From positions 64,001-128,000 of the IMG/VR virus record IMGVR_UViG_3300034152_000478: a stretch of 64,000 nucleotides of DNA, one strand, 5' to 3'. This DNA comes from a virus. The position numbers and the translations under genes were made by a program. The notes beneath the pieces are model-generated. The model did no database searches. It was not told the origin of the DNA and saw only the letters and a program-made list of their open reading frames with translations. Of this stretch, positions 1 through 49,613 are shown piece by piece. Positions within the stretch are counted from its first letter, which is position 1. Each line of letters begins with the position of its first letter.

Positions 1-762
1 ATCGTAGAGAACGGTTCGCGTGGTCTGGTGAAATCTTTGGCAGATACGCAGCATCGTCAGAAGTTTACCATCGACGGCGAAGTCTCACTGTATGCAACAG
101 AGGAAGCTGAATTTGATGCTGCTGTTGACATTATCAAGAGAGAGCCCGTGGGGTTTGACTCGTTGCTGATGGTGAGTCGAACGCGCAAAAACCCGTTCAT
201 ACAAGTCATAGACACCAATATTGCTGGCACTGGCCCATGGACCGTAACTATTACAGCTTCTGGTTATGCTTTTGATAAGAATAACGTGGCTATTGACAAT
301 GCCATTCACAATGCTTCTGTCGACTGGACCGATGGAGATTATGAGTCTCTGCCGAATACGACAGCCAGCGGCGAAATCTTCAAGTTCACACACGTTTATA
401 CAGCCAGTGGGCTTTATAAGCCCGTAGTGTCTGTGCAAGACAAGTTCGGCCGCCATGGAGCCGATGATACGACAGTTAATCTGGCCTCCGGACTTAGTCT
501 TCCGTATATTAAGTTGTTGGCTACACCTCGGCTGGGCACAACACCACCACCGTTCTATGCGGACATCGGAGTAGTGCTTTCTGGCGTACAGAATCCTTAC
601 AATCTATTCTGGAACTACGGTAACGGAATTCGCTTCTATAATAACGCCACAAGCGGAACTGCCCAGTATGCTTTACCAGGTGATTATATTCCATATGTAA
701 GAATCAAGGACGCACGAAAAATCTTCGTAGTGGATACACTGCGGGTTGGTTTCAACCAATAG
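1..762 (+). CDS. Putative virion protein with PKD/Ig-like domains (5' partial)
   Basis: Frame is open from base 1. PKD-like strands (VDWTDGD...FTHVYTASGLYKPVVSVQD; FWNYGNG...YALPGDYIPYVRIKD). Ser-Gly rich. Confidence 0.55.
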   Translation: MVENGSRGLVKSLADTQHRQKFTIDGEVSLYATEEAEFDAAVDIIKREPVGFDSLLMVSRTRKNPFIQVIDTNIAGTGPWTVTITASGYAFDKNNVAIDNAIHNASVDWTDGDYESLPNTTASGEIFKFTHVYTASGLYKPVVSVQDKFGRHGADDTTVNLASGLSLPYIKLLATPRLGTTPPPFYADIGVVLSGVQNPYNLFWNYGNGIRFYNNATSGTAQYALPGDYIPYVRIKDARKIFVVDTLRVGFNQ

Positions 763-776
763 GCAAGGAGTAGCAG

Positions 777-3700
777 ATGAGCCATCCATATATTTATGTT
801 AGCGGCGTGGGTGAGCCACTGATTTTCAATGATAGCGCCAGGATAGATGCTGACTTGGGGCTTCCTGATAGCTTTGGTCAGGTTTGGATAGCGAGCATCA
901 ATGCCAGCTTTGGCTTTAATAGCACGCCACACACTGTGGAAATGGAGCTTGTTAGCAGAGAGCGCATTACTGTCACAGAAGACCTTATTGAGAATGATTG
1001 TTCTATACAGATTGGTGAGCTGTATTTCATGGGCAAAATAGCCCATATTGACAGCAGTGTGGGAACCAACGGCTTTGTAACTCGCATGCGCTGCGAAGAC
1101 AACAGGGTCAGGCTGCTTAATGAATACCTGGTACATACTGAACCTCTACTGGAGAGCAATATTGATAAATTACTCGTGGTACCACAGGTGCTGGGTACTG
1201 CGGGAACCCTTTACCAGATCAATTCTCCTTTGTATATGATGTCTCGATACGGGGCAACTTATGCTGAGTTGTACCAGGCAATCAACACACTTGGTATCGT
1301 TACGCTACCTCCTCCTGGAGCTATAGCCAACAAACTTGGAAACCAAAAGGCATACCGTTGGGCCTTTAATTTGACGCCGCTATTTGATGCTATATTGCAA
1401 GTATTCGATGACACTGGATATGATGTCTATTTCTACAACAATGAAATTAAACTGATTGATCGCAGTAAATCAATCGAGGTCGATAGCACCTTTTTCGATG
1501 GTCAACACAAAATAGATTACCGTAGCGGCTATGACAACACGATGCGGCCAGACTCCTACTTCATCCTTGGAGCCAGGAAAGAAGGTGGTGTAGGCACAGT
1601 CTCTGGCGTTGTACAATACCAAAATCTTGTGAGTCTTGGCGCAACCTCACTGTCTCCTGCTTGGAATGATATTACTGTTAGCTATCATGATTCAGAAGGT
1701 CGACTACAAACCTACTATCCTACAGATGATGAACTAAAGATGGCACTAAAAAGCATTGAGCACTGGGTATACTTCAAGCGACAGGAGCTGGAAGCAGCCG
1801 GTGACCGAGTGTCAGAAGGCTGGATGGAGTCGAGAATAGATCCTGACGCCTTTGGCCTCCAGGGTAGCTTGTTGGAGTCGGCAATTTCATTCGGTGGTGG
1901 TCGAGACGATGTGTATCGCGTAATCCACAATAGACGATCAGAGAAATTCAATTGGGTGTGTGCTTGGTACGAGGCAGTTGCGCGTCACGCCAGGACATAT
2001 TATGGTAAATTATACTCATGTAGACCAGGCGAAAACTTCTTGCGAAAATGTGAAGTGATTGATGATACCTGGGTGCATGATAATATCGACAATCAGGTGG
2101 TGCCAGATGCGTATTCTCCATTCTATAAAGATGGCAGAATGAGCGCTTTTGCAAAATTCAGCAATACACAAGTTAAAGGGTTTGGTCCGGATGGAACAGC
2201 AACGCCGCTTGCTTTTACTGAATGGAACGAAGATGATAATTTCATCTACATGCCCGTGACTGTTACAATACACTCTCCTACAAGCGAGAAGGATACTCTG
2301 TTCCCTGGTATTACAGAAACACGCATGTTTGTTTCTCTGCCAGAGATTATAGTGGCTGACATTGAACCACATCCTCTGCTGAATAATCTGGGCACAATGG
2401 GCTTTGTCAATCAGTATGATCTGAGCAATCTTGCTACCAGCGGTAGCATTGAGGATCGATTCCAGTTGTATCTATCCAGCAAAGATATGAATGATCCACG
2501 ATTAACCATGGTGCCACTGAGTGGTGTTGACAATTTCTTTATTCCGGTACGTTACAACATTCGCTATGGGGACGATGGTAGTGCTTTGGCTGGAAGCACC
2601 AGTGGTCTTTATGGGGCAGAAATCGATGAGAAATACGCTCCATGGACCAAAACGAATCCTGCCAACCCTGAATCAGACATGTTGGTAAAAGCTCAAAAGA
2701 TAGTAGGGGATGATACAGTAGATGATTTCATAGAGGCGACCATAGTGGGTCTGCCAGAAACCAACTTCTTTGCAAACTTCTCAGATGAGAATTATGCACC
2801 GATTCATCCTTTTACCTCTATCAATGTAACAATCGGCTCAAATGGACTAACAACTCGCTATTCAGCTAAGTCTCAGATCGTTGAATTGGTAAGAGCAAAT
2901 GCTATTGAGTACAGCCGCTTCCAGTCTCGACTTAGCAGAATCCAGCATTGGGCCAACTTTTCTAAGCTTTCTTCTGACTTCAATCTGAATATTGATCTCA
3001 GCCGTGGTGGTATTTTATATGTGAGTCGTCCACCTGCTGGGAAAACGATCACTTCTACAATCGAATCTCGAAAGCCGGAAGAAGAAGTGGTCGAAGTTGA
3101 ACAGAGAAACTTTATCAAAACTGTAGAGATTATAGACGTAAAGCAGGCATCTGTAGCTGATCCTAATGGTGGCACCTCCAATATCACCATGGAGTTTTAC
3201 GCCGGAAAGGATGATAAGGGCTCTTACTGGCCAGCAAATTGGCAGGAAGTAGAGGACACACAATCTGCAGACCCAGGAGAAGAGGAAGAGGATAAGAGAA
3301 ATATTAGGGTTGTATTGGCTGGATTTGGAGTAAGTAAGACGCGAACCAAAATGCGTAAGCGAGGCTTTGCTCCATGCGTGGATGGCTACCTAAGAAAAGG
3401 TATGACTGCCCAATATCACCATGAAGATATCGAGGGTACTATCTACACCTATTTTACAGGCGGGATTGACCTCGCAGATACCAAATATGTGCGCATGATT
3501 ACTGAGGTGCAGAAAGACGAAACCAGTGGGCGCTGGTATGCGGATCTGGAAACTGTATCGCAGGTGCCAAATGTAGATCCTTTCAGGTTCAAGAAGGTGC
3601 CATTTCTCAATAACGATACTGTGGCTGGTCAAAGTTATGCAACTGGTGACAAGGTTGTCGTAGTGTGCAGTAAAGAATTCAAGGGTGGTTCAGCGAACGC

Positions 3701-4115
3701 CACAGCGGACAGTGCGAATGTGGCCAATGAAAATCAGGTATTTCCAACATGGGAAAAAGGCATTGTAAGACCAGAAGGTGATTTCCTGGATTCTGATGGC
3801 CAGCCTAACAATCTCATGTTTATAGATAATCCAAACATGATAGCGGCACTTGCAGTATATGTCGTAGAGCCACCTGATCCAATTACTGGTGTAGGAGGTA
3901 TTGTCGCCGTGGTGAACAATCCATCTAATCAATTCGGAAAGCTGCAAGGTAATGATTCCGAAGAGGGTGAAGACTTAACATTTGTTGGTGTGTCACCCGA
4001 TGTTATTCTTGAGGGTGATTATGGCATCCTCACAAAAGGTCTGAGTAATGAGTGGATTGTGATTATGCAGAAGCCTCTATTCAGCCCATATAATGAATTC
4101 AATCCGAGTGCATAA
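777..4115 (+). CDS. Large putative tail/baseplate structural protein (1112 aa)
   Basis: Long beta-rich acidic ORF with AGGAG RBS in the + strand module. N-terminus resembles tail hub proteins. Function inferred from context. Confidence 0.45.
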   Translation: MSHPYIYVSGVGEPLIFNDSARIDADLGLPDSFGQVWIASINASFGFNSTPHTVEMELVSRERITVTEDLIENDCSIQIGELYFMGKIAHIDSSVGTNGFVTRMRCEDNRVRLLNEYLVHTEPLLESNIDKLLVVPQVLGTAGTLYQINSPLYMMSRYGATYAELYQAINTLGIVTLPPPGAIANKLGNQKAYRWAFNLTPLFDAILQVFDDTGYDVYFYNNEIKLIDRSKSIEVDSTFFDGQHKIDYRSGYDNTMRPDSYFILGARKEGGVGTVSGVVQYQNLVSLGATSLSPAWNDITVSYHDSEGRLQTYYPTDDELKMALKSIEHWVYFKRQELEAAGDRVSEGWMESRIDPDAFGLQGSLLESAISFGGGRDDVYRVIHNRRSEKFNWVCAWYEAVARHARTYYGKLYSCRPGENFLRKCEVIDDTWVHDNIDNQVVPDAYSPFYKDGRMSAFAKFSNTQVKGFGPDGTATPLAFTEWNEDDNFIYMPVTVTIHSPTSEKDTLFPGITETRMFVSLPEIIVADIEPHPLLNNLGTMGFVNQYDLSNLATSGSIEDRFQLYLSSKDMNDPRLTMVPLSGVDNFFIPVRYNIRYGDDGSALAGSTSGLYGAEIDEKYAPWTKTNPANPESDMLVKAQKIVGDDTVDDFIEATIVGLPETNFFANFSDENYAPIHPFTSINVTIGSNGLTTRYSAKSQIVELVRANAIEYSRFQSRLSRIQHWANFSKLSSDFNLNIDLSRGGILYVSRPPAGKTITSTIESRKPEEEVVEVEQRNFIKTVEIIDVKQASVADPNGGTSNITMEFYAGKDDKGSYWPANWQEVEDTQSADPGEEEEDKRNIRVVLAGFGVSKTRTKMRKRGFAPCVDGYLRKGMTAQYHHEDIEGTIYTYFTGGIDLADTKYVRMITEVQKDETSGRWYADLETVSQVPNVDPFRFKKVPFLNNDTVAGQSYATGDKVVVVCSKEFKGGSANATADSANVANENQVFPTWEKGIVRPEGDFLDSDGQPNNLMFIDNPNMIAALAVYVVEPPDPITGVGGIVAVVNNPSNQFGKLQGNDSEEGEDLTFVGVSPDVILEGDYGILTKGLSNEWIVIMQKPLFSPYNEFNPSA

Positions 4116-4117
4116 TA

Positions 4118-6010
4118 ATGGCTAACGAAGAAAAACTCATAGAAGAATTAGAGGCAGCCCGACGCGCTGCTGGTGGAGGCCAAACAGAGCGTTTGAAATT
4201 GCGCTATGCCTATGGTCAGCCTGACCCATTTGTTCTTCCTTTGAATAACTTCGGTGATAAACACTTTGTGGTGCCATTTGATGGCCGCTATATCGAAGAG
4301 GTTATGTTCTACATCAACCTATACAGGCAAAATATGCTTGGTTGGTTGCCGCGATCTTTCAATCTTTATGATGCACATGGTAATCCTACAGAACAACATA
4401 TTCCCAAGGCTTCCTACATCACAAACTCCAGGTTGAATAACGTTGGCTCAATTGTCAATTTTGTACAATATGTAGAAGACCTCAAGGAAGCTGTCGAAGA
4501 AATCATTGTTGAGCCAGATACACTGGCGGCACATTTTGGTCGTTGCTTCAATAGACCACACTTTGATGATCCATATGTATTCATAAGTGAGGGATTACAT
4601 GAACGACGCCCAGTCGAAGTAGAAGCACGACTGACACACCGTGGTGAAGTGTTGCCGTTCTACAATTTCCCTGATACGATCAGCGAAGAGACACTGTATA
4701 ATGCGTTTAACAAGTTCCAATATTACACGCCTTCGCCAAGTCATCCGGCGCGGCAGATTTTGATTGATGCCTTCAAGACAGCCAGCAGACAGTTGCCAAC
4801 TATTCCGATGTTCCAACGTATGGAGAATGGCGAGTGGCCCATAACACGTAATGAATTACTCACAATGCTCGGCCTGGCCATCTACGGCAAACATCCTGAT
4901 CCCATCTATCGACCAGCAGAGCGTGAAGGATACACCAGCGAAACAAATAGATACACTATATCTGATCATAAGCGAATATTCTTGGCGGCCATCTCATTCG
5001 TGATGCAAGCGTTGCGCTTCCAGCCGCCTTTGATAGAAAGATTTCGCCCAGGCCATCCTCAAGTTGATACAAAATGGTGGACAAGTCGCTGGTATTGGAG
5101 AGTTGGTGAAATAGCATACGAGAAAGAAGACTGGTTTATCGAAGAGTTCCCACGCCAGGGCGTCAACAAGATGTGGCGCTTTGAAAATGGCTATTATCAT
5201 ATGATCGGACATGGCTCTGCGCCGGGACAAGGTTTCACCATTGACATGCCATTAGATCGATATGGTAAATCAACTCGCCAGAGAAATTATGATGATGGCT
5301 TAATCGGGCTGGGGCCTGGGCTACTTGGTATCGTGCTGGAGGAAGCTCGCGGAGTAGTGTCACACTTTGAAGAAACACTGCTGACATGGTTTGCTGGCAC
5401 TGCTTTTACTGACATCTATGGCCCGAATGCTCACCGGGAAAGCCAACCGGACAAAAACCACTACTTTTTCCATAAGTACAGTAATATGTTAATAGGTGGT
5501 TCTGCCGGTGTCTATCCTGGCGCTGGAGCCTCAGAAGGGCAAGGTGTTAGCGTGGTAATCCGCATCGATGATGGCAATAATGAGCCGTTCAGTATTTATG
5601 CTTATCATAATGCAGATAGTCAGCCGGGGATTATTTCGCTGCAAGGACTACCAGTTAATATCAATCTATACAATGAATTCCGTGCTCTTGGCCCGCAATA
5701 CGTCAATGCAGCAGACAATTGGCTGAAGATGGTCGGCATTAGGTTGGCAGCACATAGAAACAAAACTGTGACTACACCAATAACAAGTGCCTGGTGTGGT
5801 GGTTTTTACAAAGACTGTGGGCGTTTTTGCGAGAAGCTGCCCGCATCATGTTGCGATGTATATACGCCGTTTCATCATCCTTGTGGGCCAGCATATGATT
5901 TTTGGCGAAGTGGTGGCGGAATTTGGAGACCAGCGCCATCGGTCAATATACCGTACATCGCTATTATCGATGAGAAAATACACAAACCGGAAGACTTCTT
6001 AGACGATTAG
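4118..6010 (+). CDS. Hypothetical protein, probably virion-associated (630 aa), Cys-rich C-terminus
   Basis: Tightly coupled to the upstream ORF (TAATAATG). No recognisable catalytic motif. Confidence 0.5.
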   Translation: MANEEKLIEELEAARRAAGGGQTERLKLRYAYGQPDPFVLPLNNFGDKHFVVPFDGRYIEEVMFYINLYRQNMLGWLPRSFNLYDAHGNPTEQHIPKASYITNSRLNNVGSIVNFVQYVEDLKEAVEEIIVEPDTLAAHFGRCFNRPHFDDPYVFISEGLHERRPVEVEARLTHRGEVLPFYNFPDTISEETLYNAFNKFQYYTPSPSHPARQILIDAFKTASRQLPTIPMFQRMENGEWPITRNELLTMLGLAIYGKHPDPIYRPAEREGYTSETNRYTISDHKRIFLAAISFVMQALRFQPPLIERFRPGHPQVDTKWWTSRWYWRVGEIAYEKEDWFIEEFPRQGVNKMWRFENGYYHMIGHGSAPGQGFTIDMPLDRYGKSTRQRNYDDGLIGLGPGLLGIVLEEARGVVSHFEETLLTWFAGTAFTDIYGPNAHRESQPDKNHYFFHKYSNMLIGGSAGVYPGAGASEGQGVSVVIRIDDGNNEPFSIYAYHNADSQPGIISLQGLPVNINLYNEFRALGPQYVNAADNWLKMVGIRLAAHRNKTVTTPITSAWCGGFYKDCGRFCEKLPASCCDVYTPFHHPCGPAYDFWRSGGGIWRPAPSVNIPYIAIIDEKIHKPEDFLDD

Positions 6011-6035
6011 ACGTATCTATAAGTAGGAGGATATC

Positions 6036-6674
6036 ATGGCTGTAAGTGGTATTGTGACATTCCATGCTTGCCACAATAGTGGCATCATGATAAGCCAGCT
6101 TGGCTCAGGAACCTACGATCATATGGGTTTCTTTGGGGCTAATGGTGCTTCTGATGCCATTATCGTAGGTAGTTATAACGACACCACTCTGGTGGTAGAT
6201 GCTTCAGGAAATCCACGCACTCCTGTGGCTAACAGTGTCTTGGTCAACAACAAGTATATCCACAGTAGCGGTGTTTCTATATCAGGCTCACCGACTCTGA
6301 TTATCAACAATATCCAAGATGAAGTGCACCTGTCTTCTGGCACGCTTCTGATTTGGTTCCGAACGACTAACAGCGCAAAGGTTAATACCTACAATGCCAA
6401 ACTGTTTGTCTATGATAATACAGCCGATATATATACAGCACCTACAGATGTTGAAGTGGAAGGATATGAGATCAATGCTTCTGGAGTAGGTGTTGGTGGT
6501 TGGTACTCAATGAATGGGTTTGCGGCGGGTGTTAATTTTGTAGATCACGCCCCATCAACAAATTATGCTTTCAATGACACAGAACATAGATGGTATGCTG
6601 GAATTTCACTCAAGCCAATCAGCGTTGGTTTCCTCGATGATTTTGACTTTGTATTCCGATTCCAGTTTGCATAA
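6036..6674 (+). CDS. Putative virion structural protein (212 aa), Ser-Gly rich
   Basis: AGGAGG RBS, all-beta composition, 8 SG dipeptides. Confidence 0.55.
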   Translation: MAVSGIVTFHACHNSGIMISQLGSGTYDHMGFFGANGASDAIIVGSYNDTTLVVDASGNPRTPVANSVLVNNKYIHSSGVSISGSPTLIINNIQDEVHLSSGTLLIWFRTTNSAKVNTYNAKLFVYDNTADIYTAPTDVEVEGYEINASGVGVGGWYSMNGFAAGVNFVDHAPSTNYAFNDTEHRWYAGISLKPISVGFLDDFDFVFRFQFA

Positions 6675-6917: not shown

Positions 6918-7122
6918 CTCCTGCCTCCTCCAATTCTTGTCTAATGGCAGCCAATTCGTTAGCTACTTCGCACAACTTACGCCGTAGCTTGCTACGCTGT
7001 TTGCGTTCTTCATCGTTTTTGGGTTGTGGGAAATTGTTCACTTGCAGTTGTAGCGATCGAGCATAGTTCTCCATGCGCATTTTCTTAGTACGCAGCCGTT
7101 TAAGCTGAGCTAAATCCATCAT
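6910..7122 (-). CDS. Hypothetical coiled-coil protein
   Basis: ATGA overlap with the upstream gene; helical composition. Confidence 0.55.
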   Translation of the reverse strand: MMDLAQLKRLRTKKMRMENYARSLQLQVNNFPQPKNDEERKQRSKLRRKLCEVANELAAIRQELEEAGDV

Positions 7123-8072
7123 TCCTCCAAGAGTTTTTCAAAATACTGACGCGTAGCAATCAGGCCGCCAGCTAATCCTACCTTAGGCTCCCATTTCAGA
7201 ATCTTTTTCGCTCGTGTTACATCTGGCATTCTTTGTTGTGGATCATGCTTGTCGCGTCCTTTGTGTTCAATCTTGATTGGCTTATCTACGGAGAACATGT
7301 TTTGGATAATCTTAGCAAAATCAGTGATTGTTTCTCCATGAGTAGAACCGAGATTTGTAGGACCAGGATAGCGCGAAGCCATAGCCAGCTTAAGGCCAAT
7401 TACCATGTCATTGACGTAACAGAAGCATCGCATTTGCCCCCCACCAAATATTGGTAGAGACCTGCCCTGGATTGCTCTCACAAGAAACTCTGACACCACA
7501 CGACCATCATCGACCCGCATGCCTGGGCCATATGTGTTGAATATTCTAACGATTGTAGTTTTGATATCATACAGAAGACGAGCATTTTCTACGATGGTTT
7601 CTGCTGTTCGTTTAGACTCATCATAGCATGCACGATCCGAAAGTACGTTCACATTGCCGCAGTATTCTTCCTTCTGTGGAATTTGTTCTGGGTCGCCATA
7701 TACTTCCGAAGTGGAAGTCAATAGCAGCTTGGCACCATGAACTCTTGCCAGCTCACACATGGCCATTGTGCCCATTACATTAGTGGTGATTGTTTCCATG
7801 GGATATTGCTTGTACCATACCGGACTTGCTATAGAAGCCAGATAATAGATTTCATGAAAGACAGTGTTGTTTGTGCGTGTCGCTATGGCTTTAGGCGTGA
7901 TTAACTCTACGCTTCCCTGTAGGAAATTAACTCTGGGATCATCTCGAATCATAATGGGCGATGGACAGCGCATATTATCCAGACACCAAACTTTGTGACC
8001 ATCATCGGCCAAGCTTTTACAAAGATTGACGCCGATAAACCCTTGACCACCAGTAACAAGTATATTTTTCAT
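7119..8072 (-). CDS. UDP-glucuronate decarboxylase (UDP-xylose synthase family SDR)
   Basis: TGGQGFIG NAD motif, LASIASP, STSEVYGDP, RACYDESKR (YxxxK), RIFNTYGPGM..DDGRVVS, DPQQRMPD. Start set at MKNILV (ATGA overlap). Confidence 0.88.
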   Translation of the reverse strand: MKNILVTGGQGFIGVNLCKSLADDGHKVWCLDNMRCPSPIMIRDDPRVNFLQGSVELITPKAIATRTNNTVFHEIYYLASIASPVWYKQYPMETITTNVMGTMAMCELARVHGAKLLLTSTSEVYGDPEQIPQKEEYCGNVNVLSDRACYDESKRTAETIVENARLLYDIKTTIVRIFNTYGPGMRVDDGRVVSEFLVRAIQGRSLPIFGGGQMRCFCYVNDMVIGLKLAMASRYPGPTNLGSTHGETITDFAKIIQNMFSVDKPIKIEHKGRDKHDPQQRMPDVTRAKKILKWEPKVGLAGGLIATRQYFEKLLEE

Positions 8073-23365: not shown

Positions 23366-23373
23366 TCTACCCC

Positions 23374-41206: not shown

Positions 41207-41534
41207 CTTGTTCCTCTCTCAGATTGTTTAGTAGATCATCCAGAATCATCTTTACTTCTTGTCCAGGTCCTTCGTTGGCTATTATCCAGTCCCGCTGTAG
41301 GACGATGGCTCGATCACTATGGTGTCGCTTCCAAAATGCGGCATCCATTTCGAAAGGCATCCAACCAAAGCAGCGTATGCGCAACAGCCTTCCCTCCTTG
41401 AAGAAGCCTGATGGTATATCTATTTTGCCATCCTCTGGAATCTCATCACAAAATATCAATTCGCTATTAACAGGCTTCTCAAAGTTAGGTTGCACGATAG
41501 CAATGATTGCACCCGGCAATGTTCGCACAATCAT
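41184..41534 (-). CDS. Hypothetical protein
   Basis: ATGA overlap with the upstream gene. Confidence 0.5.
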   Translation of the reverse strand: MIVRTLPGAIIAIVQPNFEKPVNSELIFCDEIPEDGKIDIPSGFFKEGRLLRIRCFGWMPFEMDAAFWKRHHSDRAIVLQRDWIIANEGPGQEVKMILDDLLNNLREEQDDSSTSQ

Positions 41535-42265
41535 ATGATCTTCCTCTTTTTGAGATATTTAACAACTTGCTTTACGCACTGCTCAACAGTTTTCGATTCT
41601 GTATCTAATTTAAGCTCTGCTTCATAAGGTATTTCATATGGATCATCCACGCCAGTAAAACCCATTATTTCGCCACGTCTTGCTTTGGCGTACATACCTT
41701 TCACATCGCGACGCTCACATTCTTCAACTGAGCAATCAGCATAAACCTCAATGAAGTTGTACATGCGTTGGCGTAGTTCTTCACGTGCCTCGCGGAAAGG
41801 CGATATGAAAGTACATATAGTAACTACTCCATTGCGAGCTAAGCGCTCAGCCACAAAACGAATGCGTTGCAAGTTCTCTGCTCGATCTTCTTTTGAAAAG
41901 CCCAGATCAGATGTCAAGTCTTCCCGTACAATATCTCCATCCAGACGTTCAACTTTGACACCAGCTTGTCTTAGTCGTTCGGCTGTGGCATCTCCAACGG
42001 TAGTTTTGCCAGAACAAGGCAGTCCCGTGAACCAAAGCACACAGCCAGTATCTGTCGTCACCGAGAATAGCTTATTGAAAACGCAGTCGTATGCAAAGTA
42101 TACTCCAGTTTTTGCTGTTTCCATTAAAAGACTAAACGTCACAGCCACATGAACGCTGCCAGTCAGGATGAATGACCCAATGAATTGGAATATCAGTGCA
42201 AATATTCTGTAGAGCCCAGCTTTAGTGAGTAGAATTCTGGGCTGAAGTTTTCTCCAATTCTTCAT
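41531..42265 (-). CDS. cysC: Adenylyl-sulfate (APS) kinase with N-terminal two-helix membrane domain (DUF2061-like)
   Basis: WFTGLPCSGKTT, LDGDIVR, LGFSKEDR, RDVKGMY, FTGVDDPYE. Confidence 0.92.
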   Translation of the reverse strand: MKNWRKLQPRILLTKAGLYRIFALIFQFIGSFILTGSVHVAVTFSLLMETAKTGVYFAYDCVFNKLFSVTTDTGCVLWFTGLPCSGKTTVGDATAERLRQAGVKVERLDGDIVREDLTSDLGFSKEDRAENLQRIRFVAERLARNGVVTICTFISPFREAREELRQRMYNFIEVYADCSVEECERRDVKGMYAKARRGEIMGFTGVDDPYEIPYEAELKLDTESKTVEQCVKQVVKYLKKRKII

Positions 42266-42645
42266 ATGCTATCCTCCAACTCGTCAATGATTGCCTGTAC
42301 TTCACGCGGCACCTCGCTGGACAAGCCAGCCCTGATCTCAGTGCCGGAAATACGCTTGACATCTTCGGGTGCTTCCACAATGTAGTATCCGACTTGTCTG
42401 CCTATAATCACACCATCTATGTCAGGTATGATAATCACCTTTAACAACCCAGACCGCAGCTCGTCTTCATAGCAAGCTTCTATCATTCTCTTGCGTTGGA
42501 ATGCTGACCATTTTTCATGGCCGTCTCTAACTGCCACACAAACTGGCTTTTTGTTCATCAGGAAAGTGTCGATAATGTGTTTATGTCCACAGTGGAATGG
42601 ACTCCATCTGCCAATGAATAGATTATACTTCACAAACTCCCCCAT
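42262..42645 (-). CDS. Small HxGH nucleotidyltransferase (ATP-sulfurylase/cytidylyltransferase fold)
   Basis: FIGRWSPFHCGH, GRQVGY, ISGTEIR. Confidence 0.8.
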   Translation of the reverse strand: MGEFVKYNLFIGRWSPFHCGHKHIIDTFLMNKKPVCVAVRDGHEKWSAFQRKRMIEACYEDELRSGLLKVIIIPDIDGVIIGRQVGYYIVEAPEDVKRISGTEIRAGLSSEVPREVQAIIDELEDSI

Positions 42646-43541
42646 ACGATCCCATTGTGTGCTAAATCAGGCACGTCTAAAATCCTAATCTCGTGGCACT
42701 GATTCACTTTCTTGATTTCAGTTGTCCCAGTTACTCTTAGTTGATGGTTCAGCTCAGTGATGTGAATTGAATGGCTTCCTACGCCTCTTACTACTCGTGG
42801 ACAGTGCGTCGATGAGCCGACCAGTATTCTGTCCTTGCTAATAGCAAGTCCCCTTGTATATTTGCAATCCCCCTTATAGACCAACTCTTTGGCTCTTGCT
42901 CCACGTCGTTTCTGCATATTGTAGCGTCGTATCATAGACTTTGGCGAATGACAGAAGTACATAAAGTCGCCAACGATCGCCACATTGTGCAATTGTGAGC
43001 CGACATGGACATTGTCAAGCACCTTAGTGAACCCAACATCGACACATTTAATGTTGCTTGGAAACTGGTAATTATGCTCGACCACCCAGAAGTTTCCATC
43101 TTGTTTCCAGATTGAATTCAGGTGATTGTTCTTGTGGTTTTTATATCCTTTCTTGTCGTTCCATTTTCTGGCAAATCCCCAGGTGTATGGCTTAGCAAAA
43201 ACGCCGCTTGTCCGCATGCGTTCTATGCGACCACGATACGTATTTACTATGTACAGCATTGAAGTTTCTGGATCATAGTAAGCCTGATGTACGCCATGGA
43301 TCTTTGTCGGATATGTAGCTTCTACTTTGAATTTTTTGTTGAGTATAGCCACGGTGTCTGTTAGTTTTCTGTCACCGCTTCTTTGGCAGACGAACAAGAA
43401 ATCTTCACTCCAAGATACACCAAAACAGCTATCCTTAAAAACCTTTTTGTACCTTCCTTTATGCACCAAAAATAGACCGCAGGGTGTTGCTACCAGGTAT
43501 CTCAAATTTGAGGCTGCCATATCAATACACCTATTCCGCAC
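42630..43541 (-). CDS. Beta-propeller protein, paralog 1
   Basis: HQ, HLNS, HN, RGLA, DLAHNG motifs shared with two paralogs. Confidence 0.7.
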   Translation of the reverse strand: MRNRCIDMAASNLRYLVATPCGLFLVHKGRYKKVFKDSCFGVSWSEDFLFVCQRSGDRKLTDTVAILNKKFKVEATYPTKIHGVHQAYYDPETSMLYIVNTYRGRIERMRTSGVFAKPYTWGFARKWNDKKGYKNHKNNHLNSIWKQDGNFWVVEHNYQFPSNIKCVDVGFTKVLDNVHVGSQLHNVAIVGDFMYFCHSPKSMIRRYNMQKRRGARAKELVYKGDCKYTRGLAISKDRILVGSSTHCPRVVRGVGSHSIHITELNHQLRVTGTTEIKKVNQCHEIRILDVPDLAHNGIVWGSL

Positions 43542-44200
43542 CCTACTTTTCCATCAGGTCGCCTATGGCTGATTTCTCTTGTCTCAAACTGTCTCTTCAC
43601 TCCCTCCCAGACTCTCCAGACGCGGAACTTCGGCCCGTGCTTATTCTTGATATCATGGAACACGATAATACCGCCAGGTCTGACAAAACTTCGGTACATA
43701 CACCAATCCTTGCGGCAGCCAGCTTCCGTATGATCACCATCTATAAACAACAAATCAAGCTGACGACACTTTAGTGCAGTCTCTACGGCATCTTGGCTCT
43801 CAATCTTATGAGAATCACCTATTATGATTTCATGTTTGAAAGTCGGCTTATGTCTCGGAATTGCTGACACAACACTTTGACCCGTGCCTTCCCACTGTTT
43901 GGGAGTCGGCATATCCATCCCAATACCAAAAACATTCTCGCTTTGCCAGCTCAACACATTGCCTATCAGCACAAAGTTGGCACCATAGGCCAGCCCTATT
44001 TCCATGAAGTTAATCTGCTCAGTGCGATCTTTTAGATGGTTAGTGGCAAAATCCAGGAAGTCTACTATCTCCTTTTTGCGCTGCAATGAAGACTGAATCT
44101 TGCCTGTGACTTTCTTGAAATACTCAAGACGATCATATTCTGCAGCTATTAACTTCTTGTTCACTTGTGTGCTCCGAACGGAATGCCGTTGTGCGCCCAA
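43502..44200 (-). CDS. Class I methyltransferase (Methyltransf_24-like)
   Basis: FMEIG..YG, GDSH, LLFIDGDH, GGIIVFHDI. Confidence 0.88.
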   Translation of the reverse strand: MGAQRHSVRSTQVNKKLIAAEYDRLEYFKKVTGKIQSSLQRKKEIVDFLDFATNHLKDRTEQINFMEIGLAYGANFVLIGNVLSWQSENVFGIGMDMPTPKQWEGTGQSVVSAIPRHKPTFKHEIIIGDSHKIESQDAVETALKCRQLDLLFIDGDHTEAGCRKDWCMYRSFVRPGGIIVFHDIKNKHGPKFRVWRVWEGVKRQFETREISHRRPDGKVGCGIGVLIWQPQI

Positions 44201-45027
44201 TCCAATTCCGAAATGAGTCGCAGACAGAATACCTGGTTCACTTGTGGTAATCTGATTACGTCTCTGATTTCCAGCGTCTCCTGGTCGACAATGGTCACAT
44301 ATCCAGCTCGATCATCTTTCCTCTCTTGTGGGGTGCCCCAGCATGATTGGCCTATCACGAAGAAGTCTGAGCCCACTGCGAACCCACGAGGATAATCCTT
44401 GAAGTGTGGTTTGGGCAAATGAAACTCCTTGCGGCCGACTATTTGCTTGGTCGCCATGTCCATTTGAATCAGCGTGCGGTCCAATGACATTAGGCTGTAC
44501 AGCATGCCGTCTCTAATGAAGATGTTGTGACCCTCGTTTTCAAGCTGGTAGGTATTGATTGGATGTTCAAGATCACTGTCATAGAACTCTTGCACCCTGC
44601 AGTTGAAGTCACGCTTCCCATTCTGCTCACCGACATAGATACACTCGCCATATCTGTAGATCGAATTAATATGATTCCAGTTGTCGGATCGCCCGGTGTA
44701 GTTGAAGCTGGCAAATTCGTGCACCGCTGGGTCCCAAATCTCTACTCGGTTGCGGTCGGTATTAGTCATATAAAGTAGCTCGTGCTTGTCATCATACAGT
44801 GCTTGATGAACACGACACACGCTCTTTGCGGGCACTTTGTTAAGTAGCCGCAGACTGTGGTCAAACAGCCAAATTTCCGTATGTAGCGTTGGATGTCGAT
44901 GACAAACATACAGAGTGTATTCGTCCCAGCTAATGCCGTAGCAGGCTCCTCGCTGGACGAGGTGCACATTCTGACCGTCCACGAAAAAGAGGCCGCGTGC
45001 TGTTGTTACCAGTAGTTTAATACTCAT
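44161..45027 (-). CDS. Beta-propeller protein, paralog 2
   Basis: HQ, HINS, HN, RGFA, DWAHNG. Confidence 0.7.
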   Translation of the reverse strand: MSIKLLVTTARGLFFVDGQNVHLVQRGACYGISWDEYTLYVCHRHPTLHTEIWLFDHSLRLLNKVPAKSVCRVHQALYDDKHELLYMTNTDRNRVEIWDPAVHEFASFNYTGRSDNWNHINSIYRYGECIYVGEQNGKRDFNCRVQEFYDSDLEHPINTYQLENEGHNIFIRDGMLYSLMSLDRTLIQMDMATKQIVGRKEFHLPKPHFKDYPRGFAVGSDFFVIGQSCWGTPQERKDDRAGYVTIVDQETLEIRDVIRLPQVNQVFCLRLISELDWAHNGIPFGAHK

Positions 45028-45911
45028 AGTACTATTCCGTTATGTGCCAGGTCAGGTTCTCCCAAGGCTCTCACTTCGTATACTTGGTTGCCTTTGGGGA
45101 TACAGACTGAGCCAATCTCTTTGAACTCTTCGTCCATCTTAATGATCCAGGCGTCAAATAGCTCCATGCGCTTCTCTCTGCCACAGTGCATTGAAGCTCC
45201 CATTAGGAAGTAGCCGTCGCAGCGAGCAAGTCCCCTGGAATATGTACGCGGAAAGGCATCTTCAAAGCTTCTGTTTTGTACAATACGATCTTCGACCATA
45301 GAGTACTTGGCTATCTCACTCGTCAATGATACGGTTGTATATATGAATTCGCCTTCAACGTACACATTGTGAATCTGACTTGCAACCACCCATGCTTGTG
45401 GACGACCCACTATCTCAGGAGGCATCTTAATTACCCTGGAAGGATGATGTTTCTTGTTGTGTTCACAGGACCACCAGCATTCGCCATCAAACCATACAGA
45501 GTTAATATGGTTGTAGTCGCAGCCTGCTACTGGGGTCCAGTTATTAACCAGTATCTTATTGCCAGCAATATCAAAAAAGTCAACACGATTCTGGTGTGTG
45601 TTGGTTACGGCGATTGTCTTGGTTTTTGGATCATAGTGTGCTTGATGATTGTCTTTCACTTGTGGCAAATGCACTTCATCCATCACGCCGAAATCTTCAG
45701 GGTGCAAGGAGACCATTTTAGTTTGAGTATTTTGATTTATCCGCTGAAAAGCAAAGATTCGAGTCTTGCTCCAGGTTAATCCGTAGACATGTCCCTCATA
45801 GACCAACTCACAGTCTCTACCATCTATGTAAAAGATGCCCCTTGGTGTCGTGGCTAAGCAGCGCATCATATTAAATACTCCCTCCAGTTGTCTCTGATTT
45901 CCGGCAACCAA
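45024..45911 (-). CDS. Beta-propeller protein, paralog 3
   Basis: HQ, HINS, HN, RGLA, DLAHNG. Start likely 45869. Confidence 0.7.
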   Translation of the reverse strand: MVAGNQRQLEGVFNMMRCLATTPRGIFYIDGRDCELVYEGHVYGLTWSKTRIFAFQRINQNTQTKMVSLHPEDFGVMDEVHLPQVKDNHQAHYDPKTKTIAVTNTHQNRVDFFDIAGNKILVNNWTPVAGCDYNHINSVWFDGECWWSCEHNKKHHPSRVIKMPPEIVGRPQAWVVASQIHNVYVEGEFIYTTVSLTSEIAKYSMVEDRIVQNRSFEDAFPRTYSRGLARCDGYFLMGASMHCGREKRMELFDAWIIKMDEEFKEIGSVCIPKGNQVYEVRALGEPDLAHNGIVL

Positions 45912-46717
45912 TCATCTGTAAAGTCCACAAGTTCGTTGGGTAGTGCGACAGGCTGATTTCTCAACGGCTCTGTTTGTCCTTCAGCAAATCCATCTATTGT
46001 ATTGCCCTGTGATGGCCAGCGTAAGAATCTCTCGTTGTACCATTTCGTTAGGCTTGGTCTATCAAACGTGAGCACTTTATCTCTTATAAGCCGGGGATGT
46101 TTTACCCAGCACAAGTGAGTCATTTGCGAACGCTTCCTTGACAGCGAGACACGCCTATCCTTTATGACATCTTTACCATCAACCAGAAAATGATTAGACG
46201 CAGTATAACGCCCGCCTTTCTGAAAGCGGATAAACCGTCCCAGGTGCGACGCAGGGAACCACCAGCGAAGATTGTAGGCATACTGATATTCTCCAATCTG
46301 TACGTGTTGAACCTCGTCATACATGCGGAAAATGCGCAAGATATCCCAGAGTCCCTCGCCCCCATAGAATTCGTCAGTGTCCATAAGATGAATCACATCA
46401 CCAGGCTCTATGTCTGAAAATTCCAGCAGGTAGTTCTTGTTAATGCCATGTTGAGCCTCTCTACTGTGCCCACGCATTCTTTCTATGGGAATAGGCGGTG
46501 CTATAAATATCTGATCAGGATACTTGGCCTCCATTTCCTTCAGTACAGCCATGGTGTTGTCGGTTGAGCGTTCTGGAAGATTCCGGTTGATAGCAAGCGA
46601 TCCTTCTGCAATCAGAATTCTGTCGATATGCTCTATCCGATTCTCTATTACTCGTCTTGCCAGGTCTTCTTCATTGTAGACTTCCATTAAGCCTATAACA
46701 CGCATATTATCCTCCAA
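45866..46717 (-). CDS. GT2-like glycosyltransferase
   Basis: VYNEED, AEGS, STDNT, MDTDEF; resembles the N-terminal domain of 10980-12722. Confidence 0.8.
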   Translation of the reverse strand: MEDNMRVIGLMEVYNEEDLARRVIENRIEHIDRILIAEGSLAINRNLPERSTDNTMAVLKEMEAKYPDQIFIAPPIPIERMRGHSREAQHGINKNYLLEFSDIEPGDVIHLMDTDEFYGGEGLWDILRIFRMYDEVQHVQIGEYQYAYNLRWWFPASHLGRFIRFQKGGRYTASNHFLVDGKDVIKDRRVSLSRKRSQMTHLCWVKHPRLIRDKVLTFDRPSLTKWYNERFLRWPSQGNTIDGFAEGQTEPLRNQPVALPNELVDFTDDWLPEIRDNWREYLI

Positions 46718-47309
46718 CGTACACTACACCAAAACCATGAAAGCCAGTGGTATGCTTACAGCGCTTACGGATTTTCTCCCAGGCTTTTTTCGGCTTGTTG
46801 TTAACATCATCGAACACTATCAGTCCACCCTTTCGGACCAATGGCCTATACATGGTATAATCTTCCAGACAGCCCTCAACACTGTGATTACCGTCTATGA
46901 ACAGGAGATCAATCCCACGACCCTGTAGATCATCCTTGAGTTTATTTAGCGTTTTCTTTTCGTGTGAGTCGCCCTCAATAATTCCCCATAGGAACTGTGG
47001 ATTTAAGGCTGCGACTGCTTGGTCTGGGGGTAGCGTAGTGTGCTTATCATATGTCATATTGAAGATATCTATGCCAATTGCCACTACTGTTTTGCCAGCT
47101 TGCAATAGACAGTTTCCAATCAACACAAAGCTGCCACCCATGTGAACGCCTATCTCTACAAAGACAACTTCTTTCTGTTCCTTGAAGTGCTGTAAGATAA
47201 AATCAACCAGCCTGCAGGCACCATGCTGTGTTTGCATAATGACTTCTCGGCGATCCTTACGCCCCTTGAGCAGTCGATTGAGTTCTTCCCTGATTTCTTT
47301 CTCGTTCAT
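46707..47309 (-). CDS. Class I methyltransferase (Methyltransf_24-like)
   Basis: FVEIGVHMGGS, GDSH, LLFIDGNH, GGLIVFDD. Confidence 0.88.
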   Translation of the reverse strand: MNEKEIREELNRLLKGRKDRREVIMQTQHGACRLVDFILQHFKEQKEVVFVEIGVHMGGSFVLIGNCLLQAGKTVVAIGIDIFNMTYDKHTTLPPDQAVAALNPQFLWGIIEGDSHEKKTLNKLKDDLQGRGIDLLFIDGNHSVEGCLEDYTMYRPLVRKGGLIVFDDVNNKPKKAWEKIRKRCKHTTGFHGFGVVYVGG

Positions 47310-47938
47310 GGCTTACTAAAGAAAGTGTCTCCCTGACATTTGCCCGTTGCTTTATAGCCGTATGGGCGCAGCAGGGCTAAGGCTTCTTCAGCCCCCACCT
47401 GATGGGTTTCGATGCAGAATACTCGCGGCAAGACCGGACAGTCCTGAATACCACGAAGCGCTGCCAGCTCATTGCCTTCGATATCCAAAACAAACAAGTC
47501 GACTTCTGTTATTCCATGTCTTTCTATTAGTGTCTTGTAGGTTATCGTGTTTACTTTATGGCGTTCTAATCGAAGCTCACCCCTCTTAAGTGTGTCCCAT
47601 ATCTCCCACTTGTGCTTGAAGACAATCGACCCTCGTCCTGTCATTTTGTTTTTGTTGTCTGATTCATTCAGAGGCAGCATGAATTCTACTTCTTCGTCGT
47701 CAGCATCACTCAGCGCATACTTAAGATTGAGACAGTTAGGCCGGTTCTTTTTCAGAGCACTGAAGCAATAGGGATTACATTCAATATTAATGCCGTGCCA
47801 CTCGTTCTTCGCCTCAAACCAGCGACAGGTGCTGATAAACTTTCCATCATTGGCACCACACTCTATGAAAGTGCCACCTTTATGCTTGCGTAGCCAAGGG
47901 AATCTCTTCAAAAGGGCTTCAGTCAGCTTTGTTTTCAT
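47306..47938 (-). CDS. FkbM-family methyltransferase
   Basis: FIECGANDG, GINIE, LDIEGNE, PRVFCIE. Confidence 0.9.
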   Translation of the reverse strand: MKTKLTEALLKRFPWLRKHKGGTFIECGANDGKFISTCRWFEAKNEWHGINIECNPYCFSALKKNRPNCLNLKYALSDADDEEVEFMLPLNESDNKNKMTGRGSIVFKHKWEIWDTLKRGELRLERHKVNTITYKTLIERHGITEVDLFVLDIEGNELAALRGIQDCPVLPRVFCIETHQVGAEEALALLRPYGYKATGKCQGDTFFSKP

Positions 47939-48869
47939 TGCGATAGCGATTCTTTACCCAGTCTTGTTCTGGTCGATAGAATGTGTTCAAAGCCTGGACC
48001 ACCTGTAAGATGGCAGGGTCAAGCCCCAGCTCTTGACAACATGCCTCCAGCGCCCCAATGTCTTTCATGAAGCAGCTCCCACCGGCACCACGCAGGCCGT
48101 CTGGTCCTGGCACGTAGGTGTGCGAAGGACCAATGCGATCATCGAGAGCAATGCCTCGCCGCACTACATCGTAATTACATCCAAGCATGCCAGCGATATC
48201 GTAATAGAAGTTGAAGAGCATTAGCTTGGTAAACAATGTGACATTAGATCCATATTTGATTAGCTCGGCCGCCGTGTTAATGCAAAGAATCAGGCGATCA
48301 TCAAAATTACAGACATGTGGATTGGTGTTGATTCTGCGTAGGACATCCACCAGTCTCGTGTCATGCGCTTCATCGCTCCCAATTACAACCCTTGTGGCAT
48401 CCATTAGTGTTCCAACAGGATCAGCTTCGGTCAAGAATTCCGGGCTGAAGTGTAAATGTAGGCCACGAAATTGTGTAGCAAATTTACTTGTTGTGCCTGG
48501 TGGCACCGTAGACTTGATGCACACAGGTAGGCGTCCATTCGCTTCTATCGCGTGCAGAATGTTCAGCTTATTGAGAACATCCTTGACAATAGATAGATTG
48601 GCTTTCTCACATCGTCCATCTTCACAGTAAGCCAGTGGCGGAGTTGGCACACATACCAGTACGATATCTGCACGTTCTACTAAATGATTCAGCGAAGGAA
48701 CCGATAAAGGCAAATTCCATCCTGGAAATCTGCGTCCAAAATTAGGCTCTATATCATAGATAATGACGTTATGATATCCTCGATTTCTTAATGCCACATA
48801 GTGGGCAGCTCCCACAAAACCGCCACCAACAATTCCAATAACTGGCCCAGGGAAATCTTCGCAGCCCAT
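47919..48869 (-). CDS. UDP-glucose 6-dehydrogenase-family protein (lacks C-terminal domain)
   Basis: GGGFVG, VCVPTP, KSTVPPGTT, PEFL.E, AELIKY..N, GGSCFMKD. Confidence 0.88.
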   Translation of the reverse strand: MGCEDFPGPVIGIVGGGFVGAAHYVALRNRGYHNVIIYDIEPNFGRRFPGWNLPLSVPSLNHLVERADIVLVCVPTPPLAYCEDGRCEKANLSIVKDVLNKLNILHAIEANGRLPVCIKSTVPPGTTSKFATQFRGLHLHFSPEFLTEADPVGTLMDATRVVIGSDEAHDTRLVDVLRRINTNPHVCNFDDRLILCINTAAELIKYGSNVTLFTKLMLFNFYYDIAGMLGCNYDVVRRGIALDDRIGPSHTYVPGPDGLRGAGGSCFMKDIGALEACCQELGLDPAILQVVQALNTFYRPEQDWVKNRYRNENKAD

Positions 48870-48872
48870 AGT

Positions 48873-49613
48873 TCACCTCACCATAATGCGATCAAAGCGT
48901 ACAACACCTACGCCACGGTCATGTCCGTTGCCAAATACCCAGTGTTTATAGAAATGTGAAATGCGGTTCCACAACATTACGCCTTTATTAACATAGCAGC
49001 CAGTAACATCATGAACAGCCACAAGGCCACCACTTTTAACCATGCCTGTATAGTAGTCCCAATCGTGATTGCAAGTTGGGCAATCGTGTCCGCCATCAAT
49101 GTAAAGCAAGTCAAGTCTCCGCCCTCCTCTAAGCGCTGCGATCTGTGCACCGTGTATGGTTTCCTTCTTGGTAGAATCACCCTTGACAAAATCCCAGGTG
49201 AACTTAGGCCCAAGATTCTTAATGCACTCATCAGCCCCCATCAGTTTCTGGTAGGCCCAGCCACGTCCAGGTCGCTCTGGAGTCGGTATCTCTGGCATGT
49301 CGACGGCAATCCCGTGCACCTTGCCAAAGGCTTTCATTAACATATTGCCCATCAAAACAAAGTTGCCGCCACGATTAGTACCTATCTCCATAAAGACAAT
49401 CTCGGAAGGATACTGATGGCGAAAGTAATCTATCATGAATTGCGTGCATGCCAGGGCTTCTCCTTTGCGCTGCATAATACAGTCAGCAGGAGGACATTTG
49501 TTACCCGTGAACTTCACGATCCGTTCATACTCAGCGGTAATATCCGGGATCATGCTTCCTTTGTTGATAATGCGCTTGATCAGCGCGTCACTTTGCTCTC
49601 TGGTGAAGTCCAT
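48873..49613 (-). CDS. Class I methyltransferase (Methyltransf_24-like)
   Basis: FMEIGTNRGG, GDS, LLYIDGGH, GGLVAVHD. Confidence 0.88.
   Translation of the reverse strand: MDFTREQSDALIKRIINKGSMIPDITAEYERIVKFTGNKCPPADCIMQRKGEALACTQFMIDYFRHQYPSEIVFMEIGTNRGGNFVLMGNMLMKAFGKVHGIAVDMPEIPTPERPGRGWAYQKLMGADECIKNLGPKFTWDFVKGDSTKKETIHGAQIAALRGGRRLDLLYIDGGHDCPTCNHDWDYYTGMVKSGGLVAVHDVTGCYVNKGVMLWNRISHFYKHWVFGNGHDRGVGVVRFDRIMVR

Follow-up and report, generated by a model that had tools for sequence, protein, structure and literature searches.

Ser-Gly-hydrophobic sites in the outer proteins of an uncultured tailed phage co-occur with heptosyltransferase-like enzymes and are consistent with virion O-glycosylation

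Does an uncultured tailed phage glycosylate the serines of its own particle? The question is raised by the stretch of DNA analysed here (the window, 64,000 nt), which comprises bases 64001-128000 of the 150,882-bp IMG/VR virus record IMGVR_UViG_3300034152_000478, rated complete by CheckV. An initial sequence-only reading had proposed that the phage encodes a proteoglycan-like system, in which a chain begins with xylose on Ser-Gly (SG) sites of virion proteins, is fed by UDP-glucose dehydrogenase (UGD) and UDP-xylose synthase (UXS), and is possibly sulphated from 3′-phosphoadenosine 5′-phosphosulphate (PAPS). We find that SG dipeptides are in large excess in the outer structural proteins and that this excess co-occurs with adjacent genes for glycosyltransferases (GTs) of the GT9 and GT2 families. 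In our judgement, O-glycosylation of the virion at Ser-Gly-hydrophobic sites of its outer proteins is the best reading, with roughly even chances of being correct, and the glycan route most likely runs through heptosyltransferase-like enzymes rather than along the animal proteoglycan route. To our knowledge, virion glycosylation has been experimentally established for few tailed phages.

The plus strand carries a siphovirus-type structural module between 24.4 and 70.7 kb of the genome, which holds the large terminase, portal, major head protein and a 2220-aa tape measure, beyond which lie many tail-end proteins without assignment. The window begins within the last large fibre-like gene. At window position 6.7 kb the structural module converges on a long minus-strand block, in which two groups of sugar genes stand amid replication and nucleotide genes (Pol III alpha, DnaB, primase, RecA, PhoH, ThyX and dCMP deaminase). 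A megablast search of cultured phages with 10 kb gave no match, and tblastn with the terminase found relatives among them only at ≤24% identity. More than 560 IMG/VR matches mark the family of the major capsid protein (MCP) as a large one. Relatives used for comparison include three members of the same clade (G001, G002 and G003) and three complete or near-complete distant members of the capsid family (G005, G007 and G008). G001 is a syntenic 79.8-kb IMG/VR contig whose proteins are 40-68% identical to those of the phage; the capsid proteins of G002 and G003 are 69% and 65% identical, respectively, and the G003 fragment is cut a few kilobases past the capsid gene.

Ser-Gly dipeptides are over-represented in outer structural proteins

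Expected dipeptide counts were derived from within-protein shuffles, and 34 structural open reading frames (ORFs) were compared with the 179 other ORFs. The structural set contains 184 SG dipeptides where 84.2 ± 8.2 are expected (z about 12; shuffle maximum 108) and only 97 of the reverse dipeptide, GS, whereas the other ORFs contain 105 SG versus 114 expected (0.93). SG is the most over-represented of all dipeptides in the structural ORFs (z 10.8; next ≤3.2). The sites conform to [A/P/G/T]-S-G-[V/I/L/T], with a hydrophobic residue after Gly in 55% of cases versus a background of 32%, and acidic residues are depleted nearby (Asp/Glu fraction within ±5 residues 0.079 versus 0.118 background). 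Because the SG serines use both TCN and AGY codon families, a nucleotide-level motif was rejected as the cause of the excess; paralogy, which is limited, was rejected as well.

Enrichment is seen in the proteins whose genes follow that for the capsid, in the probable tail tube and in most proteins encoded beyond the tape measure, and is not seen in the terminase, portal, capsid (1 SG versus 1.2 expected) or tape measure. Four ORFs of the tail module lie in the window:

1-762, plus strand: C-terminal part of an 810-aa distal tail/fibre protein (genome 62330-64762); 20 SG versus 6.9 expected, GS 5
777-4115, plus strand: 1112-aa conserved structural protein, not SG-enriched (7 SG versus 6.3 expected)
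4118-6010, plus strand: 630-aa structural protein, not SG-enriched (1 SG versus 2.3 expected)
6036-6674, plus strand: 212-aa protein whose gene closes the tail module; it contains 8 SG and is a candidate acceptor (homologue alignment, AF2 model)

Thus the Ser-Gly-rich virion proteins noted in the sequence-only reading are real as a class, but within the tail module of the window only the first and last of these ORFs belong to it. Orthologues of the 810-aa fibre protein in G001 and G002 are equally SG-rich. The 1112-aa protein is 52-57% identical in the same two relatives and has neither a Pfam nor a PHROG match.

SG sites are also unusually well conserved. At aligned orthologue positions, 68% of them are kept in G001 and 57% in G002, compared with 25% and 22% of all dipeptides, 29% and 24% of GS, and 35% and 33% of other serines, so that SG retention is 2.5-3 times that of other dipeptides. 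Thr almost never takes the place of the SG serine. Public metagenomes yielded 59 homologues of the 212-aa protein, with 7-10 SG apiece versus approximately 2.2 expected, and the SG at positions 83, 101 and 149 are invariant in an alignment of 56 homologues reaching down to approximately 31% identity. An AF2 model built on 56 sequences (pLDDT 94) puts each of the eight SG either in a loop or where a loop meets a strand. Foldseek comparison of the model with the PDB gave nothing at E ≤ 0.001, the only resemblances being weak ones to pilin-like or carbohydrate-binding-module-like beta-sandwiches.

This placement raises the possibility that SG is a structural feature, resembling a turn motif, with no relation to the sugar genes, which would act instead on the host envelope (lipopolysaccharide [LPS] core or exopolysaccharide) or make free glycan. 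We consider this combination unlikely, though it deserves serious weight. On its structural side, a directional, Ser-specific and fold-independent excess in at least 10 unrelated proteins is hard to explain by structure alone. The motif could also mark some other event, such as a different modification, recognition by a chaperone or protease, or an assembly signal. The phage does have two peptidases of its own, a secreted trypsin-like one and an S26 signal peptidase, and three structural proteins open with M-A-(x)-S-G; GTs, however, are the only enzyme family with known SG specificity that we saw, and SG co-occurs with GT9 genes, as described below. The chance that such an event accounts for the motif appears slim.

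Several further observations concern these proteins. The M-A-(x)-S-G starts read MAVSGI, MAGSGQ and MASGIN (window 6036-6674; genome 60273 and 61404), and the G001 and G002 orthologues of the 212-aa protein start with MATSGV. A 192-aa protein with an N-terminal signal or transmembrane segment (57386-57964, minus strand) carries 6 SG versus 1.7 expected and is the sole non-structural ORF with a significant excess. P0027, a 59%-identical homologue of the 212-aa protein, lies on an 82.7-kb contig in the metagenome-assembled genome of Candidatus Makaraimicrobium thalassicum (Omnitrophota); this either hints at the host or reflects mis-binning of a phage contig.

GT2+GT9 enzymes accompany the Ser-Gly excess

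The following GT genes and GT-like ORFs were considered:

9519-10520, minus strand: GT-B glycosyltransferase, CgeB-like (Glyco_trans_1_2, PF13524, E 2e-11); G001 orthologue 44% identical
10980-12722, minus strand: 580-aa GT2 + GT9 (heptosyltransferase-like) enzyme with a C-terminal Cys4 cluster (PF00535; PF01075, E 1.4e-21)
13644-17291, minus strand: 1215-aa multi-GT protein with GT1/4-like (residues ~40-517), DUF4214, GT9 and GT2 parts (Pfam)
36926-37771, minus strand: GT2 glycosyltransferase (PF00535, E 2.5e-15)
38920-39696, minus strand: 258-aa ORF; possible GT9-like motifs were noted by eye, and Pfam, NCBIfam, the PDB and BLAST gave no support
45866-46717, minus strand: 283-aa probable GT-A glycosyltransferase (weak PF04724 [GT17], E 0.0026)

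The presence of multiple GTs is therefore confirmed, but in place of the nine domains in six genes counted at first, including a GT7C-like domain, Pfam supports seven domains in five genes (those starting at 9519, 10980, 13644, 36926 and 45866), and its scans detected no GT7C, GT14, GT31 or GT43 domain at E ≤ 0.01. The 258-aa ORF was dropped as a third GT9, its motif resemblance finding no support from BLAST, the PDB or NCBIfam. The G003 homologue of the 283-aa protein (25% identity, E 6e-13) maps to a region with a PF00535 match (5.7e-9).

The solved structure closest to the 580-aa enzyme is WaaF (1psw), which aligns over residues 178-342 and whose donor-site stretch NDSGLMH is matched by GNDGGLLH. 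At the end of the GT9 domain stands a Cys4 cluster, C-x5-CQH-...-C-...-C (residues 537, 543, 551 and 556), which is invariant in 25 of 25 homologues and has no Cys counterparts at the aligned positions of WaaF. The N-terminus is a GT2 domain rather than a beta-barrel. The GT2 part of the 1215-aa protein matches the Listeria flagellin GT GmaR at 1e-5.

Genes of the GT2+GT9 type follow the SG excess to distant relatives. G001 carries the same three GT genes, UXS and an SG excess of 187 versus 84.6; G002 has UXS, at its contig end, and 222 SG versus 130; and the G003 protein after the capsid gene has 11 SG versus 4.3 expected, with no UXS match in that fragment. In the three distant homologue contigs that could be inspected (L134, L135 and P0046; 3/3), GT9 genes face the last tail gene immediately on the other side of the convergence point. 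Most of these encode GT2+GT9 proteins of approximately 580-620 aa, sometimes accompanied by Methyltransf_24 or FkbM genes. UXS was not called in the 10-kb flanks of three distant SG-rich relatives, where GT9 occurs. The structural observed/expected (O/E) ratio for SG is 1.75 in L134, 2.20 in L135 and 2.29 in L136, a contig that ends before the GT region, and GS is close to 1 in all three. Overall, the excess holds across relatives with GC contents of 34-49% and co-occurs with adjacent GT9/GT2 genes in every relative whose region is visible. These comparisons identify the GT2+GT9 enzyme with its four-Cys cluster, and not UXS, as the apparent conserved partner of SG across distant relatives. The 580-aa enzyme is the best candidate for a protein-directed transferase.

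SG enrichment in relatives that lack GT9 and a close UXS is lower than in carriers: the structural O/E ratio is 1.25-1.36 in G005, G007 and G008 versus 1.7-2.2 in GT9 carriers, although G007 is an imperfect negative. The equal enrichment without these genes that the sequence-only reading had named as counting against it is therefore not seen. In unrelated phages the SG ratio is 1.1-1.4, with GS similar. A comparison of SG ratio with GT9 presence over 80 loci found through the MCP was uninformative, the 45 records searched being fragments, none with GT9. A complex prediction for the 580-aa GT with the 212-aa protein scored 0.00, which gives no verdict and counts neither for nor against binding.

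The same data bear on action at the host envelope. LPS heptosyltransferases I-III give the GT9 domains their best scores; such enzymes work at the cytoplasmic face and would require no phage exporter. In addition, the fibres of G007 are SG-rich without GT9. On the other hand, every GT9 score is far below the equivalog cut-offs, and GT9 genes and SG excess travel together over the whole GC range. The genome also encodes no Wzx-, Wzy- or WbaP-like membrane protein and, with at most four predicted helices per protein, no polytopic membrane protein fit to serve as flippase, polymerase or initiating transferase. Since no tyrosine integrase was found in the genome, lysogenic conversion is unlikely. 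Action at the envelope would, moreover, offer no explanation for the SG pattern.

A DNA target for some or all of the GTs was also considered. Phage clusters of kinase, cytidylyltransferase and GT-B genes add mono- and di-heptose to 5-hydroxymethylcytosine (bioRxiv 10.1101/2023.12.21.572611), so that heptose on a phage base has a precedent, and the GT block is mixed with Dam, phosphoribosyltransferase, uracil-DNA glycosylase (UDG) and deoxyribosyltransferase-like genes. The part most compatible with a DNA role is the GT1/4-like region of the 1215-aa protein (residues ~40-517). It occurs in distant family members as a stand-alone gene of 536-560 aa with 31-37% identity (G005:130914-132524, G007:33140-34792 and G008:84722-86404), each 0.5 kb from Pol III alpha genes, and to judge from these matches it is a family-wide core gene that always lies beside Pol III alpha. 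Against this, no ThyA-type hydroxymethylase was found in G000-G003, and no Tet/JBP match was obtained in a search in which control genomes were equally silent. ThyX and dCMP deaminase indicate an ordinary dTMP supply, the enzyme set, with its many GT domains, four sugar-type O-methyltransferases and a supply of PAPS, far exceeds the needs of known DNA glycans, and the SG pattern would be left unexplained. DNA hypermodification is in our view very improbable. Host-surface and DNA targets are thus disfavoured because none of the membrane proteins sought, no integrase, no Tet/JBP match and no ThyA-type hydroxymethylase was found.

Weaker relatives of the GT1/4-like part occur beside primase in Synechococcus phage S-EIVl and in a nucleotidyltransferase-kinase-epimerase-methyltransferase-GT cluster of Tetrasphaera phage TJE1. 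An HNH/AP2 homing-endonuclease-like ORF (12704-13183, minus strand) stands between the two large GT genes, where G001 has an unrelated 167-aa ORF.

Donor-sugar and tailoring enzymes suggest a possible heptose route rather than a proteoglycan-like chain

Genes that may supply donors or tailor a glycan, together with the ORFs lying among them, are as follows:

7119-8102, minus strand: UDP-glucuronate decarboxylase (UXS; Pfam Epimerase, E 5.6e-45)
33530-34534, minus strand: HldE-domain-I-like heptose-7-phosphate kinase (TIGR02198, E 1.1e-57; PfkB)
34485-34922, minus strand: cytidylyl/adenylyltransferase-like protein (TIGR02199, E 3.4e-10, 39.9 bits)
34919-35359, minus strand: cupin, sugar-phosphate isomerase-like (PF01050, E 8.9e-6; PF07385, E 4e-4)
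39696-40340, minus strand: class I S-adenosylmethionine (SAM) methyltransferase (PF08241, PF13489)
41531-42265, minus strand: APS kinase with an N-terminal hydrophobic DUF2061 segment (PF01583, E 2e-59)
42262-42645, minus strand: 127-aa HxGH nucleotidyltransferase (FHCGH motif; weak nucleotidyltransferase model matches)
42630-43541, minus strand: beta-propeller, DUF4915/SMP-30-like (ESM Atlas model, pTM 0.86; structural neighbours SGL/DUF4915 propellers, TM 0.8)
43502-44200, minus strand: Methyltransf_24, CmcI-like sugar O-methyltransferase class (Pfam)
44161-45911, minus strand: two ORFs, 44161-45027 and 45024-45911, with no Pfam match
46707-47309, minus strand: Methyltransf_24/rhamnosyl O-methyltransferase-like (PF13578, E 1.9e-16; PF04989, E 1.4e-9)
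47306-47938, minus strand: FkbM-family methyltransferase (PF05050, E 1.5e-17)
47919-48869, minus strand: NDP-sugar dehydrogenase lacking the C-terminal UDP-binding domain (PF03721 and PF00984 only)
48873-49613, minus strand: Methyltransf_24 (Pfam)

Three genes were overlooked in the sequence-only reading: those for the HldE-like kinase, the adenylyltransferase-like protein and the cupin. The kinase scores 195.6 bits over positions 8-312 of the 315-position model, below the 345-bit cut-off. Together with the two GT9 domains, this HldE-like set points to heptose chemistry. Two nucleoside 2-deoxyribosyltransferase-like genes and a weak SLOG/YspA-like gene (29446-29946, 35356-35886 and 35859-36272, minus strand) adjoin the set, and may mean a nucleotide or base-exchange pathway and not sugar chemistry.

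Most of the individual enzymes first assigned in this region stand. The UXS is genuine: its best PDB match is human UXS1 (E 9e-72 over residues 8-326), far ahead of the next family of short-chain dehydrogenases/reductases (SDRs), which is GalE-like (4e-30), and its orthologues in G001 and G002 are 44% and 52% identical. The APS kinase, with the P-loop GLPCSGKT, exceeds its curated cut-off (TIGR00455, 215.6 versus 138.7 bits), and FHCGH is present in its 127-aa neighbour. All five SAM methyltransferases are upheld by Pfam, and of the three Methyltransf_24 proteins one exceeds the cut-off of the CmcI/rhamnosyl O-methyltransferase model. The dehydrogenase claimed as a UGD fared less well. This 316-aa protein has the NAD-binding and central domains and the GGSCF motif, but solved structures run approximately 130 residues further, PF03720 was not found, and the TIGR03026 score is 126 bits against a cut-off of 190. 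The short form is kept in G003 (307 aa, 36% identity). The propeller encoded beside the APS kinase, which has no Pfam match, resembles SGL/DUF4915 proteins and not aryl-sulphotransferase.

How far do these enzymes favour a chain of the animal proteoglycan type? SG is the core of the animal xylosylation site. UXS, nearest to human UXS1, is present in G000, G001 and G002, and the APS kinase is genuine and would make PAPS. Set against these likenesses are the absence from the Pfam scans, at the threshold given above, of a GT14 xylosyltransferase and of GT7, GT31 or GT43 linkage enzymes, an SG context that is poor in acidic residues and hydrophobic after Gly, the truncated UGD-like gene, the lack of any sulphotransferase domain in the Pfam scans, and the fact that UXS was not called beside GT9 in SG-rich distant relatives. 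Taken together, these differences make the proteoglycan-like version improbable, and its specific features are left unsupported. The broader proposal of the sequence-only reading, that the phage glycosylates SG sites of its own virion, gains indirect support from the confinement of SG excess to outer structural proteins, its direction, its Ser specificity, its conservation and its co-occurrence with GT9/GT2 genes.

A proposed route for virion O-glycosylation and its precedents

From these observations we infer a scheme in which phage-made machinery would O-glycosylate Ser within conserved x-Ser-Gly-hydrophobic sites in the host cytoplasm. The targets would be the fibres and baseplate, the probable tail tube and, near the head, decoration-like proteins; the capsid shell, portal, terminase and tape measure would be spared. 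The first transferase would most likely be the 580-aa GT2+GT9 enzyme, acting in the manner of TibC/Aah, and the remaining GT domains might carry out a lineage-specific extension. ADP-heptose could be supplied by the HldE-like genes, UDP-xylose by UXS and possibly a uronic acid by the truncated dehydrogenase. O-methyl groups would come from the four Methyltransf_24/FkbM enzymes, and sulphate might perhaps be added, with PAPS from the APS kinase. In its most complete form, the scheme would have a widespread clade of uncultured environmental siphophages O-heptosylate a Ser-Gly-hydrophobic sequon with a GT2+GT9 enzyme bearing a Cys4 finger, and this lineage extend the product to a methylated, sulphated heteroglycan with xylose and uronate. 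Such a sequon-directed glycoprotein coat on a tailed phage, the work of phage genes throughout, is unlikely.

The closest precedent is that of TibC and Aah, enzymes of GT9 fold that heptosylate many Ser, and not Thr, residues of the beta-rich autotransporters TibA and AIDA-I in the cytoplasm (PMC4358343). TibC modifies Ser-313 within QNSGG of TibA and recognises its substrate through a four-Cys iron finger (PMC4358343). The phage system resembles these in having a GT9-type GT-B domain with an ADP-heptose pocket motif, a Cys4 element, putative sites that are restricted to Ser before Gly, a kinase of the ADP-heptose type, enzymes that are soluble and an enzyme gene adjoining the genes for its putative substrates. 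It differs in that the phage GT9 domain is fused to GT2 and lacks the N-terminal beta-barrel of these dodecameric enzymes, matches neither the family model nor the TibC sequence, is accompanied by many further GTs and methyltransferases, and would act on phage virion proteins. The Cys4 cluster is at most a putative counterpart of the iron finger of TibC. By analogy, the 580-aa enzyme may work like a bacterial autotransporter heptosyltransferase (BAHT); we do not say that it is one, because it matches no autotransporter-type model and TibC was not found by sequence, and membership of that family is thus not supported.

Resemblance to the LPS heptosyltransferases WaaC, WaaF and WaaQ is closer in sequence and structure, since these provide the best matches of the GT9 domains and an aligned NDxG..H stretch. 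The phage domains differ from them in scoring well below equivalog cut-offs, in the Cys4 cluster that WaaF lacks, and in their fusion to GT2 or GT4. According to the account of Freeman et al. (2023) given in PMC12619734, mycobacteriophage GTs modify the C-termini of capsid and tail-tube subunits of their own virion. Phage-encoded GTs for the phage's own virion proteins are likewise proposed here from sequence. Compared with that account, the present capsid has no SG excess, the putative sites are dispersed Ser-Gly-hydrophobic ones in outer tail and decoration proteins, and the enzyme set (GT9, UXS, HldE-like and APS kinase) is different. Giant viruses such as chloroviruses and mimiviruses build atypical virion glycans with their own sugar-nucleotide enzymes, GTs and methyltransferases, without host machinery (PMC9614988). 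Unlike the tailed bacteriophage described here, they infect eukaryotes and have different enzyme families and attachment sites. In the literature searched, no dispersed Ser-Gly-hydrophobic sequon tied to GT9 enzymes is described.

A number of points weigh against virion O-glycosylation at SG sites by this route. The target of glycosylation is itself deduced wholly from sequence, and a turn motif of purely structural origin could account for SG at loop-strand edges. SG richness is not exclusive to GT9 carriers, because G007, which has no GT9 and only a 24%-identical SDR as a UXS-like protein, contains six structural ORFs with significant SG excess. The co-occurrence of GT genes with SG rests essentially on a single clade compared with outgroups, and therefore represents few independent events. 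On the enzyme side, the GT9 domains best match the LPS heptosyltransferase I-III and RfaQ models of NCBIfam, all below cut-off; for six GT9-bearing proteins no autotransporter-heptosyltransferase model is among the NCBIfam matches at E ≤ 0.01, and TibC is absent from the PDB sequence-search matches up to E 10. The adenylyltransferase-like protein (34485-34922) has PHHV, a degenerate form of HxGH, and the dehydrogenase is without its UDP-binding domain. A regular-expression search for the 5′-phosphosulphate-binding (5′-PSB) motif was as empty of sulphotransferases as the Pfam scans. Finally, genes of DNA and nucleotide metabolism are scattered through the GT block, joined in relatives by UDG and MT-A70.

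If virion O-glycosylation at SG sites is correct, a protein-directed branch of GT9 heptosyltransferases would exist beyond the autotransporter enzymes. With a sequon that is short, conserved and can be counted, phage glycoproteins could be predicted from sequence, which bears on studies of host range, stability and immune recognition. Co-expression of just two genes, those for the 212-aa protein and the 580-aa enzyme, offers a compact test that does not depend on having the phage in culture.

Other genes in the window

A MazZ-like dATP/dGTP diphosphohydrolase is encoded at 22907-23398 (minus strand; PF18909, E 7e-29). DNA containing 2-aminoadenine (Z-base) was considered in this connection and rejected, as the genome has no PurZ/adenylosuccinate-synthetase homologue. 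The trypsin-like peptidase, which has an N-terminal hydrophobic segment, lies at 30927-31757 and the S26 signal peptidase at 38448-38999 (both minus strand). Between 50461 and 52442 (minus strand), an HD-domain protein with an N-terminal OB fold and an enzyme of the GMP reductase/IMPDH family adjoin dCMP deaminase and a UDG-superfamily protein. Pol III alpha is a single 1118-aa ORF in the window and is represented by two to three ORFs with gaps in G005:133091-137434, G007:27152-32640 and G008:86891-91179; from this gapped, split arrangement, inteins, introns or homing-endonuclease insertions are possible in those relatives.

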